Shown: positions 2,341 through 46,067 of the stretch, piece by piece
How the letters are laid out: each line of letters opens with the position of its first letter
Position numbering within the stretch: the first letter of the stretch is position 1
Assembly: GCA_039927695.1 (NCBI GenBank)
Contig: JBDSUM010000007.1
Span: 11,700-75,699, forward strand
DNA from: Minisyncoccota bacterium
GTDB lineage: Bacteria; Patescibacteriota; Minisyncoccia; Phycocordibacterales; Phycocordibacteraceae
DNA length: 64,000 nucleotides
Direction of reading: 5' to 3'
Translations under genes and position numbers: made by a program
Notes under the pieces: model-generated
What the model was told of the DNA's origin: nothing
The model's database searches: none
Seen by the model: only the letters and a program-made list of their open reading frames with translations

Positions 2341-2611
2341 CTATTAATTGATGCCAGACCAGGTGGTGGTGCATAGTCTATGCAAAACGAGCGATTCGTA
2401 GCATGGTCGTGGAGGGCTTAGCAGAACAACCAGACTGCGATATTATGAAGAGGTAATACGGGGCTATGTATTACATCAATATGGCCTAAACCGAGCAATT
2501 GCCCGGCATGGCCGAATAACCGCGACCAGCATAGAAAACCCGTCATCAGGGCGCTGGTCGCGTTATCAGGGGAAACTCTGATATGTCCTTCGGGACTCCT
2601 GGTGGCGGGTT

Positions 2612-3331
2612 TTGTGCTACCCACCAGAATTACAAATCGCGACCAGCAATATTATGGATAATCCATCACAGCCTTCTACGAAGGCTACTCACCTTACCCT
2701 AGGTAAAATTATTATTTGGCTTCTGAGTGTCGGACTCTTGGTTTCGGGAATAATATCCCTCTTTACTAACTTCGGCATGGGACTGACCATCATTCTGGCA
2801 AGTTTGGTGATCTTACCACCGCTGACAAAATATCTGAAAGAGAAACATAACTTCTCAATCTCTGGACCACTCAAAATAGTGCTCCTGTTCGGGATCATCA
2901 TGATAGGAGGATTTATTATTAGCCAAGGTAAGGATACGGCTCCTGCTGCTACGGAAACACGTCCATCTGCAGCATATGATGTTCCTTCTCTCCTAGGACT
3001 AAGTCTCAAAGAGCTTGAGGCGAAGCTTGGTACATCCTCATACGATACCGAACCGACAGCACAACAGCTCGCTATCGGTGGAATCGATACATGGGAGAAA
3101 AGCTGGAATAATGGTGACTACAGTCTTATGGCTACGTACGACATAAAGACCAAGAAAGTTACTGACCTCTTCCTTAGTGCAGATACGGATGCCGCATTCA
3201 AGAAATTCGAGGATACTGACAATATTCTTACAGCAGGGAATCTTTCAAAGAACGACTCTCATTACTCGGTTGAATTTGTTAAAGCAAAGAATGGTCCTGG
3301 TTACACAGGAGCAATTGTTCGCCTCAAATAA
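2612..3331 (+). CDS. Membrane protein, 2-3 N-terminal TM helices plus soluble C-terminal domain
   Basis: Hydrophobic stretches at N-terminus; no family recognised. Confidence 0.45.
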   Translation: MCYPPELQIATSNIMDNPSQPSTKATHLTLGKIIIWLLSVGLLVSGIISLFTNFGMGLTIILASLVILPPLTKYLKEKHNFSISGPLKIVLLFGIIMIGGFIISQGKDTAPAATETRPSAAYDVPSLLGLSLKELEAKLGTSSYDTEPTAQQLAIGGIDTWEKSWNNGDYSLMATYDIKTKKVTDLFLSADTDAAFKKFEDTDNILTAGNLSKNDSHYSVEFVKAKNGPGYTGAIVRLK

Positions 3332-3387: not shown

Positions 3388-4878
3388 TTACCAGGAAAGA
3401 TCGCTCCAGTTCATGCTGTAGACACGAGGTACGCTAGGCGGATCTTGAGAGACGCTATGAACGAGGTTTGAGAATGCGTCGGCAAGGTCGTCATGCTTCT
3501 CAACTCCGAAGTGGACTATCTGCTGGATTAACTGCTCAGCTCCTTCTCGAGGGAACACGACTTTTCCGTCTCTGATTGAATTTGCCGTAAGGACAAGACG
3601 ACTTCGCTTATCGGTGGCACCAGGACGGACGGTCTTAACGTTGTGTACGCCTTCTTCCTTCAATTGTTGTGGCAGTGCTTTCTGATACGCTACATCCTCA
3701 ATAATAAAGATAGGGTATCGCTTATCCGATTCGTAGTAACTCTGTTCCAGAATCTTGCACGTATCTACTGTTTCAGGGAAGTTCAGTCGTTTGTTAATGA
3801 TCTTGGGAAGAATATACAACCGATAGCCTCTCTCAAGTTCATAGAGGAGTCCTGGTACCATGGCGGTATAGTCCGCAGTTGCGCTCTTCGAAATCGCTGG
3901 GTCTATACCAATACGCACTTCACGATACGAGGAATAACCGCTTTTGAATCGAATCGGTGGTGGTATCTCGTCGTAGTACTGGATCCATTCGCGGTAAATT
4001 GCTTGGTCGTCGGCTGGGACGATATTCAGCATATATTCGCGCTGCCAGGCGTACTCGTTTCCGGCTCGTCGCTTTTCGTTTTCAATTTCCTCCATATTTG
4101 AGTACTTACCCGGCCATAGGATTTCTCCGTCTTTTGTTACGAGTGGATACTCTTTGAACACGGCGTCGATTGTGTTTTTCTCAACGCGCTCTTTTAAACG
4201 CATAAGAAGCGAATCCTCGTGAAGTAAGTTACCGATAACAACGATACGTGTAGTGCGATCTCCGGTCGGGATAACCTCTCCAGTGAACCATTGGAAGGTC
4301 TTGTCGCGACCTTCGCGCGTCTTCGTGGAAGCGATATCCTCTACGTCGTCTCCAATGATGAGATCAGGGCGATGCTGGTTGTGACGCAAACCACGGATAC
4401 TCTGCTCACTTGAAGCTGCCGTAATGCGTGCGCCGCGCTCGGCAAATACGAGTGAGAACGAACCCCATTCGTCCGCCTCTTCTTTGAATGGCCCTAAATC
4501 ATCCTTCAACATCGAATTATTCTCTAATTCGTTTCGCAAGTTTCGCATATGCTGCTTCGCTTGGCTCTGTGTCTGACAGAGAATCAGCACGAACTTCTTC
4601 TGTTGTTTTCCGAGGATTGCCCAGATAGGATAAGAAGTTGTAATAATTGTAGACTTACTGCTTCCGCGAAACGCGACTACGAACAAGTTTCCGATGTTCT
4701 CGTCTTCAATCAATGAGATCATCTCTGACTGAAACGGAGCAGTCGCGTATTTAACGTAGTGAGCGAAGTAGAAGTGGAAGAAATACCACAGACTATTTTT
4801 AGTGATTGCTATTCGCACTGCTCGATCCTTCATCATCTTCTCTACTAGTTCCGGTGGAAGCATATTTACCTGGTTCAT
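3388..4878 (-). CDS. Phage terminase large subunit
   Basis: Walker A-like FRGSSKST; ATPase + C-terminal RNase H-like nuclease architecture; 496 aa; directly downstream of a small HTH protein. Confidence 0.85.
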   Translation of the reverse strand: MNQVNMLPPELVEKMMKDRAVRIAITKNSLWYFFHFYFAHYVKYATAPFQSEMISLIEDENIGNLFVVAFRGSSKSTIITTSYPIWAILGKQQKKFVLILCQTQSQAKQHMRNLRNELENNSMLKDDLGPFKEEADEWGSFSLVFAERGARITAASSEQSIRGLRHNQHRPDLIIGDDVEDIASTKTREGRDKTFQWFTGEVIPTGDRTTRIVVIGNLLHEDSLLMRLKERVEKNTIDAVFKEYPLVTKDGEILWPGKYSNMEEIENEKRRAGNEYAWQREYMLNIVPADDQAIYREWIQYYDEIPPPIRFKSGYSSYREVRIGIDPAISKSATADYTAMVPGLLYELERGYRLYILPKIINKRLNFPETVDTCKILEQSYYESDKRYPIFIIEDVAYQKALPQQLKEEGVHNVKTVRPGATDKRSRLVLTANSIRDGKVVFPREGAEQLIQQIVHFGVEKHDDLADAFSNLVHSVSQDPPSVPRVYSMNWSDLSW

Positions 4879-6603: not shown

Positions 6604-7395
6604 CTATATTTCTCCTAGTCGCTTTCGTGTTCTTGTCACGATTGTACGGATAAGGTTTGTGGTTAATTTCGGCCATTGATTCGCTAATTCTGAATATATG
6701 AACATATCGCTCGCCATCATCGGATCAGTGTGGCGTTTCTTACCATCCATTCTAAACTTTTTGTACTCTGTATATACTTGCAAATCGCGCTCCATATTCC
6801 GCCATGCCTTATTCTTTTCGATGCGATCTTTGAAGAGAAACTCTTGTTCCTTCTTAATCCAGTCCCAATGAGTTTGGAAATCCTCTTTAGTGGTGTGTGG
6901 AAATATCTCTACGAGAAGTTCCCATGTATCGTCTTTCTTTCGGCGCATACTCACCTGAAATGGGGACGTGTATAGCTCCTTTTGCCCAAAAAAGAAGTAC
7001 ATCTCCAAGAAATCCTTGAATGCCGGATTATCCTTCAATCCATAGTGGTTCAGTATTTCTCCAAATACCTGACCGTATATAGGTGGGAGGTATTCTTTAC
7101 GGAAGGATTCTAGCTCGTTGTACTCATCCAAATTGAGCATTTCTTTGCCACAAGTGATCTGCTTAGCACGCTCCTTGAACTCAGAACCATTCTCCATTTC
7201 CCCATACCGCTTCCAGAACCGATCGTTCCACTCTAGGTATTCCGAATACTTCTTGAAAGGCTCCTTAGAAATCGGACAGCCTATTTCTTTGAACCTAACC
7301 TTGAGCCAAGCCTCTTTCTTGAGGAACCACTCGTCTCTCAGTAGGGCAGCTGCTTTGTGGTAGTCCTGGTTATGTATGGTGCGACTTTTGGGCAT
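6604..7395 (-). CDS. Hypothetical protein
   Basis: 263-aa ORF in prophage-like segment; no recognised domain. Confidence 0.45.
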   Translation of the reverse strand: MPKSRTIHNQDYHKAAALLRDEWFLKKEAWLKVRFKEIGCPISKEPFKKYSEYLEWNDRFWKRYGEMENGSEFKERAKQITCGKEMLNLDEYNELESFRKEYLPPIYGQVFGEILNHYGLKDNPAFKDFLEMYFFFGQKELYTSPFQVSMRRKKDDTWELLVEIFPHTTKEDFQTHWDWIKKEQEFLFKDRIEKNKAWRNMERDLQVYTEYKKFRMDGKKRHTDPMMASDMFIYSELANQWPKLTTNLIRTIVTRTRKRLGEI

Positions 7396-7502
7396 ATGGC
7401 TAAGTATAAGACTCTCTTAGAACAAGCTGAAACTTCTTAGCTTCACATATAAACCACCCTTATTCATTATCATTAGACATTATCGGCTAAACAAGCTAAT
7501 AT

Positions 7503-7856
7503 ATGAAAAACAACATGACCTTAGGGACATTTATCAGAGGAAAGAGAGACGAGCTTGATTTATCGCTCACGGAGTTTGCCAAGCTAATTGGTAAAACAGC
7601 TCCGTTTCTATATGACATTGAATTAGATAGACGACATCCATCTGATGAAGTTCTAGATTTGATTGCACAAAACTTAAAGGTATCGCGAGTTGAATTAGAT
7701 AAGCACGATACTCGTCCTCCAACTAAAAATATTAGAACGCAAATACAAGCAGACCCGCAGTACGCTTTTGCATTTAGAAAGACAGCAGATAGTGGCTTAA
7801 GTCCAGCTGAGATAATTGCTGCAATTGAAAAGGCTCAGAAGAGTAAGCGGGGTTAA
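7503..7856 (+). CDS. XRE-family HTH transcriptional regulator
   Basis: HTH_3-like LSLTEFAKLIGKTAPFLYDIE near N-terminus; paired with downstream ImmA-like peptidase. Confidence 0.75.
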   Translation: MKNNMTLGTFIRGKRDELDLSLTEFAKLIGKTAPFLYDIELDRRHPSDEVLDLIAQNLKVSRVELDKHDTRPPTKNIRTQIQADPQYAFAFRKTADSGLSPAEIIAAIEKAQKSKRG

Positions 7857-7864
7857 CAACTTTT

Positions 7865-8557
7865 ATGAAAAATATTCGCGCATTCGAAGGTCCCCATAAA
7901 GATCGGCCTTTTTATGAGAATCACGAGATTGAGCGAATGTGTATTGAAGAGTTGAGTACATACAATCTGCTCCCAGATGAACCGTCGCCAATTCGTATCG
8001 AACGATATATAGAGAAGCGACTCGGCATTACTCCAGCTTACGAAGAGATACCATCTAACATTCTTGGATTCACAAAGTTTGGCACCGCTGGAGCAGAAGC
8101 AATCGTCGTATCACGTTCGCTTCAAGAAGACGGTACTCAATCTTCTGAGCGGCGTGTACGTACGACACTCGCCCATGAAGCTGGGCACGCGTTACTCCAT
8201 GCACATCTTTTTATGAAGCCGACGAGGAAGATGAAAGAACTTTTTGATGACGAACACACAGACATGTCGAAGGTGCTTTGCCGCGACATCGTTGAGAAGA
8301 CCTCTGAAGACGCTCCAAAGTATTCATGGTGGGAATTTCAGGCGAATGCTGCCATGGGTGCACTTCTACTACCCGAGAACCTTTTTCGTACGGCGGCCAA
8401 TCCCTTTTTTGAGTCCACGGGGCTACTCGGCGATACCCCCGTCATCACGCAAGAGGGAAGGGGTGAGCTCGAACGCTCGCTCGCAGACGTATTCGACGTA
8501 AATCCTATCGTCGTACGACATCGTGTCCAGCAGGTGTACTTCCCTAACCGTAAGTAA
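7865..8557 (+). CDS. ImmA/IrrE-family zinc metallopeptidase
   Basis: HEAGHALLH (HExxH) motif in a ~230-aa protein immediately after the XRE regulator. Confidence 0.8.
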   Translation: MKNIRAFEGPHKDRPFYENHEIERMCIEELSTYNLLPDEPSPIRIERYIEKRLGITPAYEEIPSNILGFTKFGTAGAEAIVVSRSLQEDGTQSSERRVRTTLAHEAGHALLHAHLFMKPTRKMKELFDDEHTDMSKVLCRDIVEKTSEDAPKYSWWEFQANAAMGALLLPENLFRTAANPFFESTGLLGDTPVITQEGRGELERSLADVFDVNPIVVRHRVQQVYFPNRK

Positions 8558-42058: not shown

Positions 42059-42748
42059 TTATATAACCTCTATTTCATGCACTTTCTTTGATACGAAGCT
42101 GTAAAATTGAGCCGGCCGATGTTTGTCACCCGATCGCTTGTAAGGAGATTCTTTAAGAACATCCAATTTCAGTATTTTCTTACGGAAATTACGCTTATCA
42201 AGACCTGCTTTCAAAATGCATTCATAGGCTACTTCAAGTTCTGTAAGAGTGAACTCCTCAGGCATAAGCTTGGAGATGAGAGTGGTATACGTGAGGCGAG
42301 AGCGTAGGCGCTTGGTACCAACCGAAAGTATCTCATCATGATCATAGGCTAACTTCGTAGCACGTGTGACCGGTACCCATTTAGAATCATCCGTGTCTTC
42401 TTGTTCTGGAGTTGATAATGCCTCCCAGGGGACTAGCGCTAGGTAGGCAACAGCAACGACTCTGCCGCGAGGATCTCTGTCTACTTTACTAAATGTAAAG
42501 AGTTGCTCTACATATATTTTCCTTGGATCGATATGTGATTTTTCTTTCAAATGTCGCAATGCTGCTATCTCAGCAGTTTCTGATGGATGAACAAGTCCAC
42601 CGGGCAATCCCCAGGCATTTTGATAGTAGGGAGGTCGATGTATGGCAACGAGACGAACAAACAGTTGTTTGTCGCGAACCGTAAACAATGTGGTATCAGT
42701 CGATAGAACTGCAAATCGCAACTCACTATTTTTAGGTACCTTATTCAT
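42059..42748 (-). CDS. nrtR: NrtR-like regulator (Nudix domain + C-terminal winged helix)
   Basis: Degenerate Nudix box GGLVHPSETAEIAALRHLKEKSH; C-terminal FTLTELEVAYECILKAGLDKRNFRKKILKL matches the NrtR wHTH; adjacent to NAD salvage genes. Confidence 0.6.
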   Translation of the reverse strand: MNKVPKNSELRFAVLSTDTTLFTVRDKQLFVRLVAIHRPPYYQNAWGLPGGLVHPSETAEIAALRHLKEKSHIDPRKIYVEQLFTFSKVDRDPRGRVVAVAYLALVPWEALSTPEQEDTDDSKWVPVTRATKLAYDHDEILSVGTKRLRSRLTYTTLISKLMPEEFTLTELEVAYECILKAGLDKRNFRKKILKLDVLKESPYKRSGDKHRPAQFYSFVSKKVHEIEVI

Positions 42749-42800
42749 ATAGATATAATAGTCATACTCTCACTATTCTCCAATTAAGGTTGGTCGCTAA

Positions 42801-42835
42801 GGATAAAAAGAAGTCGGCTGTGTCAAAGCCGACTC
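42801..42835 (-). terminator. Rho-independent terminator downstream of the ADP-ribosylglycohydrolase gene (minus strand)
   Basis: agtcggct-gtgtcaaa-agccgact stem; on the minus strand it is followed by ttcttttttatcc. Confidence 0.7.
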
Positions 42836-42853
42836 CACTACTGACGAGTCTGG

Positions 42854-43798
42854 TTACGAATGATTTCTTTCGTAGAGAAGATCTGCCAGCTCTTTCATGC
42901 GTTCGCCGCCGCGCAGCACAGATATCCATTCGGCTGGGATTCCCTCGATACCATAGGTGGCGCCGAGCAGTGCTCCTGCAACAGCGGCATAAGTGTCAGT
43001 ATCGCCGCCGAGCGCGATAACTGCGCTTATGCCTTCCTCGAAGGAGGATGTCGTGAGCAGTGCCCATAACGCAGCTTGTAACGTAAGCACTGCGTTACCT
43101 CGATCAGGGAAGTTCTTCGGAATGATCGGCTGAACCGTCAGATCTTGAAGCTGATGAGCAAGCGACCAATCGTCGGTATGCGATACCCCATGTGCAACTG
43201 CATAGCGAATGTCGCCACCGTTTAGCAATGCATCAAGGATATGTACGAACACGACGCAGGATTCCATTGCCGTTTCATGCCGATGGGTGACATGCGATGA
43301 ATTGCGCACAGAAGAGTCGATATTCACCATATCGGTATCGTGGAAGAAAAGAGCAAGTGGCGCACTGCGCATCAAACTCCCATTCGTGACTCTCAGCGGC
43401 AGATCCTTCAGATCCAGAGACTCCGCATAGGTTTCAGCGGCAAGAGTCTCGCGCGTTGTACCGCCGAAGCCTTTAACAACTCCATCCCAGAGAAAACTTT
43501 TACCCTGAAGTGCCGTACTCTTGAATCTGCGATATTGATCTTCCAGATCGATGCAGCCACATTCGACCAAGCTTTCTGCAAGCGCGGCCGTTAGTTCCGA
43601 ATCATCGGTAGGGCGTCCAGCAGGGAAGATGCCGTCCACACCCCAAGGGTCAGGGTAGGCAAACGGAACAAGTCCGCCGCGTTTGGCGTAGTCGGCGAGA
43701 ACGGTTTCTGAGAACCATGTCTCATAGGGAGCGCCTAACGCGTCCCCGGCCAATACGCCGACGAGGGTACCTTGATAGCGGTTGCGAAGATGTGTCAT
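42854..43798 (-). CDS. ADP-ribosylglycohydrolase-family protein
   Basis: GVLAGDALGAPYE N-terminal motif and later Asp-rich metal-binding segments. Confidence 0.8.
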   Translation of the reverse strand: MTHLRNRYQGTLVGVLAGDALGAPYETWFSETVLADYAKRGGLVPFAYPDPWGVDGIFPAGRPTDDSELTAALAESLVECGCIDLEDQYRRFKSTALQGKSFLWDGVVKGFGGTTRETLAAETYAESLDLKDLPLRVTNGSLMRSAPLALFFHDTDMVNIDSSVRNSSHVTHRHETAMESCVVFVHILDALLNGGDIRYAVAHGVSHTDDWSLAHQLQDLTVQPIIPKNFPDRGNAVLTLQAALWALLTTSSFEEGISAVIALGGDTDTYAAVAGALLGATYGIEGIPAEWISVLRGGERMKELADLLYERNHS

Positions 43799-43899
43799 TT
43801 CGGTGCCTTTCGAGTTAATCCTCCTACACCTTACTTTCCCCGTTGCTTATTGTCAAACATACACGATGTCCACAGCTCTCACGTATCTTATTGACACAA

Positions 43900-43922
43900 C
43901 TTAGTGTGTAATATACACTAAG
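43900..43922. promoter_or_regulatory. Imperfect 23-bp palindrome overlapping a sigma70-like promoter in the divergent nrtR/ARH <-> pnuC-nadR intergenic region; candidate NrtR operator
   Basis: cttagtgtgtaatatacactaag; TTGACA at 43892-43897 immediately upstream. Confidence 0.4.
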
Positions 43923-43946
43923 TAAATAGAAGTAAAGGAAACTGCC

Positions 43947-44627
43947 ATGAAAACGAAACATACCCAAACACTCCACGTTCTTTCCCTCATCGGTTCAGTG
44001 GCACTTACCTTTGCTTCGTGGCGGGGTCTCGTACCTATAAGTCTTACCGAAGTATTCGGCTTCATAAGTGGGGGACTGTGCGTCTGGCTTACGGTAAAGC
44101 AGAATATCTGGAACTGGCCAATTGGCATAGTAAATAATATCTTCTTTATTATCTTGTTTTGGCAGTCACATCTGTACGCTGATATGGCGTTACAAGTTGT
44201 ATACATCGTACTCAGTATTCTTGGTTGGTACTGGTGGGTGCGTGGCGGGGTGGGTAATACAAGTCTTACCGTGTCGCGAATAGGGATTCGTACTGTATTG
44301 GTACTTACTCTAATTGGTGTTGTAACAATGTATGGTATGACGCTCTACTTGCGAACCGTGCAGGACGCAGCCCCATTCTTAGATGCTCTTACCACCGTAA
44401 TGAGCCTTATAGCTCAGTACCTTCTCACTAAGAAGAAGATTGAAAATTGGTACCTTTGGATGACCGCTGATGTGATCTATGTCTGGCTCTATTGCTTTAA
44501 GCATCTTTATTTGACTGGCTTCCTCTACGCTATCTTCTTCGCGATGTGTATAGCCGGGGTTATAGCGTGGCGTCGTTCAATGAAACTTACCAATAAAGAG
44601 GCAGTCCTCACCGCCCACCATGTTTAA
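43947..44627 (+). CDS. pnuC: Nicotinamide riboside transporter PnuC
   Basis: 7-TM profile with PnuC-like W-rich segments (NIWNWPIG, GWYWW); followed by nadR. Confidence 0.7.
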   Translation: MKTKHTQTLHVLSLIGSVALTFASWRGLVPISLTEVFGFISGGLCVWLTVKQNIWNWPIGIVNNIFFIILFWQSHLYADMALQVVYIVLSILGWYWWVRGGVGNTSLTVSRIGIRTVLVLTLIGVVTMYGMTLYLRTVQDAAPFLDALTTVMSLIAQYLLTKKKIENWYLWMTADVIYVWLYCFKHLYLTGFLYAIFFAMCIAGVIAWRRSMKLTNKEAVLTAHHV

Positions 44628-45594
44628 GCGCGGAGTAGTCATTGGTAAGTTCTACCCGCCTCATTGTGGCCATAAGTACCTTATTGATACGGCTCGTAGT
44701 CAGTGCGAACAGCTCACGGTGATCCTCTGTTGGAAGAAAGGTCAGGAAATATCAGGAGTGGAGCGAGCGCGTTGGATTCAGCACATTCATCCGGATGTTC
44801 AGGTAAAGCTTCTGGATGACGATCGCCTCGGTGAGGATGACTCTAAGGCGTGGGCGGAGAACACGCTCGCCGTACTCGGATTTACTCCTGATGCGGTGTT
44901 TACGTCAGAAGCATACGGCGATCCGTATGCTTCCTTTATGGGCACGGTACATGTGCTCGTTGATAAGGAAAGAACGTATATTCCCATCTCAGGAACAATG
45001 GTGCGGAGTGATCCGATGAAATACGCTGAATTTCTCGAGCCAATCGTTCGAGCATACTTTGCTAAAAGAGTATGCGTGCTTGGTGCTGAATCTACAGGGA
45101 CGACAACGCTCTCGAAAGAACTCGCCGCTCACTATAAAACGGTATGGGTTCCTGAATATGGTCGTCTATATTCTGAAGGAAAGTTCTACGCAGATAAGAA
45201 CGCAGAGTGGAGGAGCGATGAATTTGTAACAATAGCAAAGGCTCAATGCGATCTAGAGGACACGCTCGCAGAAGCTTCTAATGGATTAGTTATTTGTGAT
45301 ACTGATGCTTTTGCTACCAGTCTTTGGCATGAGCGTTATATGGGAACTCGATCAAAAGAGGTCGAAGACATTGCTGCGCGTAGAAACTATACCTTGTACA
45401 TACTTACCGGTGATGAGATTCCCTTCGAACAAGACGGGCTTCGAGATGGCGAACATATACGTCATGGAATGCATAAGCGATTCATTGAACGACTTGAAGA
45501 AGAGAAGAAGAGTTATATTCTTGTATCTGGAAGTAAAGAGCAGCGACTCAAGAAGGCAATTACTGAAATCAATAAGGCAATATCTGCGAATTGA
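44620..45594 (+). CDS. nadR: NadR-type NMN adenylyltransferase / ribosylnicotinamide kinase (no HTH domain)
   Basis: Cytidylyltransferase motif GKFYPPHCGH; second domain has a P-loop-like GAESTGTTT (Lys to Thr at the usual GK[ST] position). Confidence 0.7.
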   Translation: MFKRGVVIGKFYPPHCGHKYLIDTARSQCEQLTVILCWKKGQEISGVERARWIQHIHPDVQVKLLDDDRLGEDDSKAWAENTLAVLGFTPDAVFTSEAYGDPYASFMGTVHVLVDKERTYIPISGTMVRSDPMKYAEFLEPIVRAYFAKRVCVLGAESTGTTTLSKELAAHYKTVWVPEYGRLYSEGKFYADKNAEWRSDEFVTIAKAQCDLEDTLAEASNGLVICDTDAFATSLWHERYMGTRSKEVEDIAARRNYTLYILTGDEIPFEQDGLRDGEHIRHGMHKRFIERLEEEKKSYILVSGSKEQRLKKAITEINKAISAN

Positions 45595-46067
45595 AACGCG
45601 TTAGAATAGAGCGTATGGGAAAGTACGTCATCGTCTGTATTTTAGAGGCGGAATTCCCGCAGGAATTCCAATATGTTGATTGGCCATCGCACACTACATT
45701 ACTGCGCCCCTTTACTACAGATACCTCAAGTCAAAAACTCGCTGAAACACTGCAAAGTATTTGCGAGCAACACCACGCTTTGACTACGGAAGGGAAATCG
45801 AGGGAGTTATTCGGACCAGCATCTGACGTTCCGGTTATAGAACTTGTGAATACTCCAGAGCTTCAAAAACTCCACGATGATATTAGAACGGCATACATTC
45901 AAGAAATAGAATTTACCGCACCGCAATATCCAGACTTTAGACCTCACGTAACAGAAAATAATGGAAAGGGTGTTGAAGTTGGAGAGTCGGTGAAGATATC
46001 GTCACTTTCATTAGTTGAGCTAACCCTAGAGTCTCACAATGTACTTAATACTTTTCTGTTACAGTAA
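45591..46067 (+). CDS. 2H phosphoesterase (LigT-like) family protein
   Basis: Two H-x-T motifs (HTTLL and RPHVT) ~80 aa apart; overlaps the nadR stop. Confidence 0.55.
   Translation: MKRVRIERMGKYVIVCILEAEFPQEFQYVDWPSHTTLLRPFTTDTSSQKLAETLQSICEQHHALTTEGKSRELFGPASDVPVIELVNTPELQKLHDDIRTAYIQEIEFTAPQYPDFRPHVTENNGKGVEVGESVKISSLSLVELTLESHNVLNTFLLQ

Follow-up and report, generated by a model that had tools for sequence, protein, structure and literature searches.

An ordinary vitamin-B3 salvage locus of Candidatus Paceibacterota with a predicted NrtR operator and a threonine-type NadR Walker A motif

Can a NadR whose kinase domain lacks the Walker A lysine still serve nicotinamide riboside (NR) salvage, and which of its neighbours belong to the same regulated system? 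The question is raised by a locus in a Candidatus Paceibacterota MAG, in which nrtR and an ADP-ribosylglycohydrolase (ARH) gene are divergent from pnuC-nadR, followed by a 2H phosphoesterase gene. ORF and domain analysis of the window (the whole analysed stretch of 64 kb) confirmed the five genes of the locus and its two sequence features, and the Pfam and NCBIfam domains agree with the gene assignments proposed in the earlier note. The locus itself is ordinary, an NR salvage cluster with a well-supported predicted repressor site; its interest lies in the threonine-type Walker A motif of NadR. As a whole it is probably an NrtR-regulated NR salvage locus of Paceibacterota (CPR) with a predicted operator, a likely working lysine-less NadR, and an incidental 2H gene.

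The nrtR gene (42059..42748, minus strand) encodes a Nudix-like effector domain (Pfam NUDIX, 8e-14) and an NrtR winged-helix DNA-binding domain (NrtR_WHD, 2.4e-21). The NCBIfam NtrR model matches the product with 5.5e-42, yet under the model cutoff. The best PDB match is Shewanella oneidensis NrtR (3GZ5, with further structures 3GZ6 and 3GZ8), which is similar over the full length (E 1.7e-27) and has the same two-domain architecture. It is clearly diverged in sequence, however, and controls prs-nadV rather than pnuC-nadR. The Nudix box, read from the sequence, is degenerate (RHLKEKSH vs REUxEExGU), as it is in the S. oneidensis protein (RKLAEKT). The ARH gene (42854..43798, minus strand) belongs to the ARH/DraG family (Pfam ADP_ribosyl_GH, 5.8e-57, 194 bits), with PDB matches to 2CWC (2e-24), Tri1, and DraG. 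Its metal-site motifs are kept (TDDS, and GGDTDT aligned with GGDADT of 2CWC). The related locus L085 carries a 47%-identical ARH 1.5 kb from pnuC-nadR. The GC content of the ARH gene is 0.52-0.535, against 0.40-0.48 in its flanks. A consensus scan placed a terminator-like hairpin with a T-run (42810..42836, minus strand; 10-bp stem, 6 GC pairs) in the gap from the end of ARH to the beginning of nrtR, so a single ARH-nrtR unit is only putative. The same scan found a weak promoter-like TGGAGA-16-TATTAT at 42782-42755, ending 7 nt before the nrtR ATG.

On the other side, pnuC (43947..44627, plus strand) encodes the NR transporter (Pfam NMN_transporter, 2.7e-51; TIGR01528, 98.5 bits against a cutoff of 42.45). 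It lies directly upstream of nadR in 78/80 related loci. Here nadR (44620..45594, plus strand) overlaps the pnuC stop by 8 nt. Its product consists of an NMN adenylyltransferase domain with the motifs H15-x-G-H18 and I-S-G-T-M-V-R and a ribosylnicotinamide-kinase-like P-loop domain. Only NMNAT and AAA_28 domains were found, which confirms the earlier reading of a NadR without HTH. The NCBIfam NadR models match below their cutoffs (213.9 < 341.15 and 146.2 < 201).

The divergent intergenic region holds the main candidate NrtR operator, site B (43901..43921), a 21-bp palindrome TTAGTGT-GTAATAT-ACACTAA with a GT-N7-AC core. The palindrome spans 43900-43922, and a longer form (43899-43923) has 12-nt arms with one mismatch. 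It overlaps the pnuC promoter-like element, as the earlier note had stated. This element (43891..43919, plus strand) consists of TTGACA at 43891-96 and TACACT at 43914-19 with a 17-nt spacer, and matches the consensus at 10/12 positions. Site B extends over the spacer and -10 of this element, with 25 nt separating it from the pnuC ATG. The window has a single exact match to its 21-mer pattern. With a matrix built from orthologous sites of other genomes only, site B scored 26.7 bits, the top score in the window, against a maximum of 14.2 in 30 shuffles. The second best score, 15.4 bits, also exceeds this maximum and belongs to site A (TTATTGTCAAACATACACGAT, 43847..43867), a weaker candidate operator on the side of the divergent ARH(-nrtR) unit. 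Near-identical counterparts of site A are found at the equivalent position upstream of nrtR in L086/L087 (TTATTGTTAAACATACACGTT) and L002. The locus aligns with its closest nrtR-bearing relative, L086 (identity 74% for NrtR and 87% for NadR), at both sites, at the -35, and through the 5'UTR, and the TTGACA is kept in alignment with L085-L087. The same motif also precedes a nudix-nadV-prs operon in L086.

Recurrence of the operator was counted over the 300 bp preceding pnuC/nadR, where up to one mismatch to the core TAGTGT-N7-ACACTA was allowed. Such a site was present in 32/85 related loci, a density of 1.44 sites per kb against a background of 0.019 (about 76-fold). The operator is commoner where the locus has nrtR (11/17 vs 23/66, p = 0.03), and is missing from some nrtR-bearing loci (L007, L014, L051, L077). 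Many operator-bearing loci, two thirds of them, have no nrtR within 6 kb. This would fit binding by some regulator other than NrtR, but the motif follows the NrtR-specific rule of 21 bp with GT-N7-AC. In L002, L037, and L086, as here, it lies between nrtR and pnuC, and L018 and L019 have it upstream of nrtR itself. The NadR encoded here has no DNA-binding domain. A different regulator is therefore very improbable. According to published work, NrtR recognises 21-bp palindromes built around GT-N7-AC, and its DNA binding is relieved by ADP-ribose (PMC2330246). Site B is accordingly predicted to be an NrtR operator by its fit to this rule and its recurrence in relatives. The earlier note made the same proposal, which absence from orthologous promoters would have undermined; the motif is present there.

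The layouts nrtR<>pnuC-nadR and nrtR-draG were already known (PMC2330246). The closest NrtR regulons are those of Hahella chejuensis (nrtR<>pnuC-nadR), Streptococcus (nadR-pnuC-nrtR), and Streptomyces (nrtR1-draG) (Rodionov et al. 2008, PMC2330246). Shared with this locus are the regulator family, the divergent nrtR / pnuC-nadR layout, the 21-bp GT-N7-AC palindrome, and an ADP-ribosylglycohydrolase beside nrtR. The locus differs from them in its CPR (Paceibacterota) host, in uniting ARH and pnuC-nadR, and in its consensus wTAGTGT-N7-ACACTAw. Here ARH is located between the operator and nrtR, whereas the relatives have nrtR directly there.

The Walker A motif of the NadR kinase domain (45082..45108, plus strand) reads GAESTGTTT (G155-A-E-S-T-G-T161-T-T), with T161 encoded by ACG at 45100-45102. 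Phosphoryl transfer normally requires the lysine that stands here in the canonical motif, which means that the threonine form could be inactive. In HMMER alignments T161 falls on the lysine of GxESSGK[ST] in solved NadR structures (9x6f, 8x7f, 1lw7). The alignment check proposed in the earlier note upheld the loss: homologue alignments have threonine in the lysine column, and no conserved lysine was found in them at a shifted position. Threonine is found in 116/120 close homologues, in 54/80 species-representative loci from many phyla, and in 120/120 sequences of an actinobacterial branch that includes PnuC-NadR fusions. Position 161 is only ever Thr (ACC 22, ACG 19, ACT 10, ACA 9) or Lys (AAG 14, AAA 12). 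The NJ tree requires at least 11 K/T changes, and K-type NadRs inside the Paceibacterota clade are nearer to T-types than to other K-types. Thr-type and Lys-type NadRs alike have E157, S158, G160, T162, T163, E179, R182, D227, T228, R275, and R281 in 100% of sequences; D272 occurs in 169/170 of the former and 30/30 of the latter, and neither class varies at the NMNAT motif residues H15, G17, H18, and R129. A search for a compensating basic residue specific to Thr-type NadRs found none. In these sequences threonine prevails across a very large clade, is kept by purifying selection, and uses all four of its codons.

The single-nucleotide difference between AAG and ACG might suggest a sequencing or assembly error, or the mark of a pseudogene. 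This was rejected as having next to no chance of being right: several hundred independent sequences, drawn from many phyla and sources, share this threonine and encode it with all four Thr codons, and nadR is an intact ORF with high conservation outside this position. A less likely but more serious reading is that the Thr-type domain is a pseudo-kinase, whose P-loop would still bind NAD or a nucleotide and which would serve as a sensor or PnuC-docking gate, with NMN coming from elsewhere, for example from NadV. The missing lysine is consistent with this, a binding or regulatory domain would also be strongly conserved, and nadV-prs within the same regulon in L086/L087 gives the lineage a route to NMN that bypasses NR phosphorylation. 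The genome view is 64 kb, and other NMN sources are possible outside it. However, the nearly 100% conserved residues go beyond binding and include the Walker B Asp and the Arg residues of the lid, and the interchange of Lys and Thr among close relatives with the rest of the site unchanged is hard to square with switching between active and dead enzymes. The pnuC-nadR coupling is equally tight in both classes, and fusions to PnuC carry threonine.

The Thr-type kinase domain is therefore more probably functional, possibly re-tuned, than degenerate or decaying, because threonine is clade-wide, the other catalytic residues are invariant, and PnuC-NadR fusions carry it. NadRs of Haemophilus influenzae (1LW7), E. 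coli type (8X7F), and Lactococcus lactis (6GYE) share the NMNAT and P-loop ribosylnicotinamide kinase domains, the conserved Walker B and lid motifs, and PnuC as partner. The NadR here differs from them in the threonine, the missing HTH, a QDGxRDGExIR lid, and its scores under the NCBIfam cutoffs. A clade-wide natural replacement of the P-loop lysine in an otherwise conserved enzyme is also known in Kti12 of Eurotiomycetes, where the K14L variant remains active with lower ATP affinity (PMC7363723). Kti12 belongs to another family (a tRNA-dependent ATPase) and has Leu instead of Thr, and its substitution is limited to one fungal class with no repeated K/X interchange reported (PMC7363723). The large multi-phylum group of PnuC-coupled, HTH-less Thr-type NadRs has apparently not been described so far.

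Family knowledge and comparative genomics suggest how the system may work. At low NAD turnover an NrtR dimer would sit on the 21-bp TTAGTGT-N7-ACACTAA across the spacer and -10 of the pnuC promoter, with the weaker site A facing the divergent ARH(-nrtR) unit, and both units would be repressed. ADP-ribose, an NAD breakdown product, would bind the catalytically degenerate Nudix domain and release NrtR. PnuC would then import NR, and NadR, translationally coupled to pnuC, would convert it to NMN and on to NAD. ARH may free ADP-ribose from ADP-ribosylated substrates and so feed the same signal. The Thr-type NadR domain would still trap NR together with PnuC, and is most likely a kinase whose ATP affinity or regulation has changed.

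The 2H gene (45615..46067, plus strand) probably stands outside this conserved system. The earlier note had it overlapping the nadR stop, which would require an unlikely TTG start at 45591; the ATG at 45615, 20 nt past the stop, is favoured since the NCBI call (150 aa) and the homologue N-termini, aligned residue 1 to residue 1, agree. A role in the NAD/ADP-ribose system, under NrtR and acting on ADP-ribose 1'',2''-cyclic phosphate or a related NAD-derived cyclic phosphate, is improbable. The gene does follow nadR in the same direction with no terminator found between them, its active site is intact, and ADP-ribose-related genes adjoin pnuC-nadR elsewhere (ARH here and in L085, NADAR in L051). 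Recurring membership in the operon was not seen, however: the gene is absent at nadR in 80/80 species-representative loci and those of the closest relatives, and pnuC or nadR was near its 42-63%-identical homologues in 0/7 distinct genomic contexts. It is therefore probably an incidental neighbour, placed downstream of nadR in this genome only and probably co-transcribed with it by read-through from the pnuC promoter. The protein is YjcG/LigT-like (PF13563; Pfam 2_5_RNA_ligase2, 6.8e-12), with motifs H26-T-T and H111-V-T conserved among 146 homologues. Foldseek with its confident AF2 model (pLDDT 96.3) placed Bacillus subtilis YjcG (2D4G) on top, followed by the Arabidopsis Appr>p cyclic phosphodiesterase, which would fit the NAD-linked role, and LigT. 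YjcG is the closest match by sequence as well as by fold, which speaks against that role; the 2H protein here is about 20 residues shorter and 23% identical to it. The pair of HxT motifs and the 2H fold are common to this protein, YjcG, and LigT-type 2H phosphoesterases (TM-score to 2D4G 0.74, normalised to the query), and sequence and model together predict an intact YjcG-like enzyme of the cyclic-phosphodiesterase type.

The locus is an ordinary cluster for nicotinamide riboside (NR) salvage under NrtR control, with two genes on the (-) strand and, divergent from them, three on the (+) strand. The former are an nrtR-like regulator (42059-42748; Pfam NUDIX 8e-14 and NrtR_WHD 2.4e-21) and an ADP-ribosylglycohydrolase, ARH (42854-43798; Pfam ADP-ribosylglycohydrolase, 194 bits). 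The latter are pnuC (43947-44627; TIGR01528 98.5 bits against a cutoff of 42.45, Pfam NMN_transporter 2.7e-51), an HTH-less nadR identified by ORF listing and profile searches (44620-45594), and a 2H phosphoesterase gene (ATG at 45615, end at 46067; Pfam 2_5_RNA_ligase2 46.1 bits against a cutoff of 27). The ORF listing and profile searches upheld the five gene assignments proposed earlier from the sequence alone.

The N-terminal HTH repressor domain, found only in enterobacterial NadR, is missing from the NadR of the window, which has the NMNAT domain at its N-terminus and matches the PRK08099 model from position 65 onwards. The NMNAT motifs H15-C-G-H18 and I-S-G-T-M-V-R are present. The Walker A motif of the kinase domain reads GAESTGTTT and does not match the canonical GxxxxGK[ST]. 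The solved relatives of this protein are 9x6f, 8x7f, 1lw7 and 6gye, and HMMER aligned the motif with GTESSGKTT (9x6f), GGESSGKST (8x7f) and GGESSGKSV (1lw7), so that T161 (ACG, 45100-45102) occupies the position of the Walker A Lys. The earlier note had read this Lys as missing, and the alignments to solved NadRs and to homologues agree: no shifted conserved Lys was found among the NadR homologues, and K166 is variable.

The substitution is widespread. Thr was found in 116 of the 120 closest homologues (65-100% identity), with Lys in the other 4. The species-representative loci, collected with a search pattern that admitted both residues, span Patescibacteria, Chloroflexia, Verrucomicrobia, Acidobacteria, Armatimonadota, Planctomycetes, and Actinobacteria; here 54 of 80 have Thr and the remaining 26 have Lys. 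In the actinobacterial branch, collected with the Phytohabitans flavus protein (a cultured species) as seed and containing three PnuC-NadR fusions of ~530 aa, all 120 sequences are Thr-type. Among 86 loci position 161 is encoded by ACC (22), ACG (19), ACT (10) and ACA (9) for Thr and by AAG (14) and AAA (12) for Lys, and no other amino acid was detected there. Because four Thr codons and two Lys codons are in use with no other residue, the position is under selection, and exactly two states are allowed. The earlier note had also proposed an impaired or altered kinase. The loss of the Lys stands, while impairment as a local event does not, since Thr is the selected state of a whole clade.

The two states have replaced each other repeatedly. 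On a neighbour-joining tree of NadR rooted with enterobacterial and Haemophilus proteins, a Fitch parsimony script counted at least 11 K/T changes, an approximate number. The Paceibacterota clade includes four Lys-type proteins, each of which resembles a Thr-type protein (73-82%) more closely than any Lys-type one (68-76%). Around position 161 the local sequences of both types are otherwise interchangeable. The remaining active-site residues are fixed. H15, G17, H18 and R129 of the NMNAT domain do not vary among 200 homologues of both classes. In the kinase domain neither class shows any change at D227-T228 (Walker B) or at R275 and R281 of the lid, and at the lid residue D272 just one sequence deviates. 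The other P-loop residues, together with E179 and R182, are likewise invariant in Thr-type and Lys-type proteins.

Covariation across the homologues revealed no compensating basic residue tracking Thr versus Lys. Columns 264-267, 190, 255 and 291 do covary and were considered as compensation, then rejected: they follow phylogeny and the covariation is missing in the recent Lys-types of the Thr clade. An Arg-rich lid, QDGxRDGExIR, runs throughout the subfamily to which the window NadR belongs and differs from that of enterobacterial NadR. Such a lid might make the Walker A Lys less critical.

NadR is closely coupled to PnuC. The start of nadR overlaps the stop of pnuC by 8 nt, and the two genes are adjacent in 78 of 80 loci, whichever the Walker A class. 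In three metagenomic proteins of 529-536 aa (P0347, P0353, P0360) they are fused, with NMN_transporter, CTP_transf_like and AAA_28 domains in one chain, and all three fusions are Thr-type.

The Walker A Lys is regarded as indispensable in textbooks. Hundreds of NadR sequences nevertheless keep Thr under purifying selection, and the residue flips between Thr and Lys while the other active-site residues stay fixed. The reading we favour, with a confidence somewhat short of even, is that the Thr-type domain is functional together with PnuC and would most likely be a kinase with altered ATP handling. The broader claim is held just as tentatively: a very large PnuC-coupled NadR clade that spans several phyla, among them Patescibacteria, Chloroflexia, Verrucomicrobia, Acidobacteria, Armatimonadota and Actinobacteria (including the cultured Phytohabitans flavus) may phosphorylate NR without a Walker A Lys, Thr and Lys being functionally interchangeable. 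If true, this would be, to our knowledge, the first widespread natural lysine-less P-loop small-molecule kinase. A natural replacement of the Walker A Lys is documented in Kti12 (K14L), where the enzyme is active with lower ATP affinity (PMC7363723). The main rival explanation makes the Thr-type domain a non-catalytic sensor or gating domain. The missing Lys could accommodate such a role; the kinase residues invariant in both classes and the recurrent exchange of Thr and Lys point towards catalysis, and we consider the rival unlikely.

A literature search of incomplete coverage found no report of a Thr-type Walker A in NadR, or of NadR/PnuC in Patescibacteria. The favoured reading, a working kinase with Thr in the P-loop, is directly testable, with Phytohabitans flavus as a cultured source, and if it is true the many evolutionary T-to-K and K-to-T swaps are ready-made controls. 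Active kinases would provide a natural system for testing the real contribution of the P-loop Lys and may reveal how organisms with little energy to spend tune ATP affinity. Inactive ones would mean that NR salvage annotations of many uncultured lineages are wrong and that PnuC-dependent uptake needs another explanation. Annotation is affected as well: the window NadR scores below the NCBIfam cutoffs (TIGR01526, 213.9 vs 341.15; PRK08099, 146.2 vs 201), NCBI names the Thr-type proteins 'AAA family ATPase', and the curated models in current use leave them unnamed as NadR.

The regulator has the NrtR architecture, a Nudix-fold effector domain at the N-terminus and a winged-helix DNA-binding domain at the C-terminus. 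Its best solved relative is S. oneidensis NrtR (3GZ5; E 1.7e-27, full length). With 143.9 bits it falls below the cutoff of 400 of the equivalog model NF050029 (NCBIfam), and it is a diverged family member and no equivalog of the proteins modelled there. Its Nudix box reads RHLKEKSH where REUxEExGU is expected, a degeneration of the same kind as the RKLAEKT of S. oneidensis NrtR, which suggests that the Nudix domain binds a ligand and is non-catalytic. A weak promoter-like element on the (-) strand, TGGAGA-16-TATTAT (42755-42782), ends 7 nt 5' of the nrtR ATG, and for this reason the nrtR mRNA may be leaderless. The palindrome AATAGT-N9-ACTATT (42757-42777, 6-nt arms) overlaps this element. 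It was rejected as an autoregulatory site: the half-site spacing is wrong and it scores -2 bits against the operator matrix.

According to Rodionov et al. 2008 (PMC2330246), the majority of NrtR motifs are palindromes of 21 bp that share a conserved GT-N7-AC core, and NrtR binding is suppressed by ADP-ribose. The main operator candidate of the window, site B (TTAGTGT-N7-ACACTAA, 43901-43921), is a 21-bp palindrome with this core next to NAD metabolism genes, and its sequence has a single exact match in the 64 kb. A repeat finder extended the palindrome to 43899-43923, with 12-nt arms and one mismatch. Site B is enclosed by a promoter-like TTGACA-17-TACACT (43891-43919) whose -10 element is the right half-site itself, and the ATG of pnuC lies 25 nt downstream of it. 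Against a matrix built from orthologous sites only, whose training sites score 20.6-29.7 bits, site B scores 26.7 bits, and the maximum in 30 shuffles of the window was 14.2. The earlier note had predicted that the palindrome is an NrtR operator. This is strongly supported by the fit to the NrtR motif and by conservation in orthologous promoters.

The comparison set for the latter comprised 80 species-representative loci with a gene for a NadR relative, plus several from closer relatives. The palindrome is not missing from orthologous promoters: in 32 of 85 loci the 300 bp upstream of pnuC/nadR contain TAGTGT-N7-ACACTA with at most one mismatch. The density of the core motif there is 1.44 sites/kb versus 0.019/kb in the rest of the same loci. 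Operator sites are commoner when nrtR is in the locus (11/17 vs 23/66, p = 0.03). The association between the K/T state and operator presence is significant but confounded by phylogeny. In many loci the 7-nt spacer consists of TTGACA plus one base, for example ATAGTGTTGACAATACACTAA; such sites lie upstream of pnuC in L013, L027, L033, L036, L040, L042, L048 and L066. In these loci the operator is centred on the -35 element, while in the window it covers the -10.

A matrix scan of the window detected one further candidate in the same intergenic region, site A (TTATTGTCAAACATACACGAT, 43847-43867, 15.4 bits), and no operator sites besides A and B, the next best match scoring 5.1 bits. Near-identical counterparts of site A occupy the same relative position beside the divergent gene in L086/L087 (TTATTGTTAAACATACACGTT) and in L002, loci of other genomes. 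Between the window and L085-L087 the entire regulatory region can be aligned, from site A through the -35 element and site B to the 5'UTR with its AGGA Shine-Dalgarno. L086 is the closest nrtR-bearing relative; in L086/L087 NrtR is 74% and NadR 87% identical to the window proteins, and the place of the divergent gene is taken by nrtR itself. Downstream of nrtR there (L086 895-4335 (-), and L087) come a NUDIX gene of 303 aa, nadV (NAMPT), prs and a PGDYG-domain gene. The interval between nrtR and this NUDIX gene contains two more operator sites, both strong. The nudix-nadV-prs block is missing from the corresponding place in the window genome. Because the motif also marks nudix-nadV-prs in L086/L087, it probably defines a small NAD regulon in the lineage of the window and L086.

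The window NadR has a 100%-identical counterpart in a Candidatus Paceibacterota MAG, which makes the host a CPR/Patescibacteria bacterium. CPR bacteria depend on salvage for NAD. The NrtR regulon reaches them with a concrete, testable operator consensus, wTAGTGT-N7-ACACTAw. Known layouts include nrtR<>pnuC-nadR in Hahella and nrtR-draG in Streptomyces (PMC2330246). In Phytohabitans flavus NBRC 107702 (L051) the layout is nrtR<>pnuC-nadR with a Thr-type NadR; a NADAR-domain gene (6975-7523 (+); Pfam 2.1e-52) follows nadR with overlapping stop and start, another ADP-ribose-related gene attached to a pnuC-nadR operon, and a further ORF lies at 7466-8332.

The best solved relative of ARH is 2CWC, and Tri1 and DraG were matched as well, with scores under the DraG and Tri1 equivalog cutoffs. 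The metal-site motifs are kept (TDDS, and GGDTDT aligned with GGDADT of 2CWC). Its putative role is to supply free ADP-ribose, the NrtR effector. ARH near nadR is rare, with 2 weak matches in 80 loci. In the relative L085 an ARH 47% identical to that of the window and divergent from nadE stands 1.5 kb away from pnuC-nadR; the association of ARH with NAD genes thus recurs, though not often. In the window ARH takes the place beside site A which is held by nrtR in L086 and L002. Its GC content is 0.52-0.535 versus 0.40-0.48 in its neighbours, and ARH may be a later insertion. A terminator-like hairpin separates it from nrtR. A defence-system reading of ARH or of the 2H gene was dropped, there being no relevant PADLOC matches.

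The 2H gene encodes a genuine, intact 2H enzyme, judging by its motifs and predicted fold. The motifs H26-T-T28 and H111-V-T113 are present, both His being 97-99% conserved in 146 homologues. The AlphaFold (AF2) model has a pLDDT of 96.3, and Foldseek ranked B. subtilis YjcG, the Arabidopsis Appr>p cyclic phosphodiesterase (CPDase) and LigT in this order. The family is small, with 386 matches at E <= 1e-3 among 1.84 billion representatives.

The 2H gene had been described as overlapping the nadR stop and as a member of the pnuC-nadR operon, and neither claim was supported. The NCBI call and the alignment of homologues residue 1 to residue 1 favour the ATG at 45615 over the TTG that would overlap the nadR stop. 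No terminator was found in the 20 nt between nadR and the 2H gene, and because of this short gap without a terminator co-transcription of the two is likely. It would be in keeping with a role of the 2H protein in the NAD/ADP-ribose system. Against such a role, the gene is linked to pnuC-nadR in none of the 80 nadR loci and in no close relative, and its homologues of 42-63% identity occupy seven distinct contexts, none with pnuC or nadR. The gene 3' of nadR is heterogeneous (NrtR in 5 of 51 loci, NADAR and NAD kinase once each). The 2H gene most likely adjoins nadR incidentally, and a role in the NAD/ADP-ribose system is very improbable. In L093-L095 (about 3561-4459) 23 nt separate a small NUDIX gene from a 42%-identical 2H homologue downstream of it, and in L082 and L084 the 2H gene has NUDIX genes no more than a few kb away; NUDIX genes being common, this proximity may be chance. 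Apparent synteny of the 2H gene with locus L001 (nearby OmdA and AHSA1 Pfam families) was discarded, the proteins not being detectably orthologous at E <= 1e-3.

Elsewhere, no tRNA genes were found in the 64-kb window. Its sole Rfam match is a full-length LOOT RNA (RF03000) at 2483-2597 (+), with 69.8 bits against a gathering score of 46.4, directly upstream of the ORF at 2612-3331 (+).
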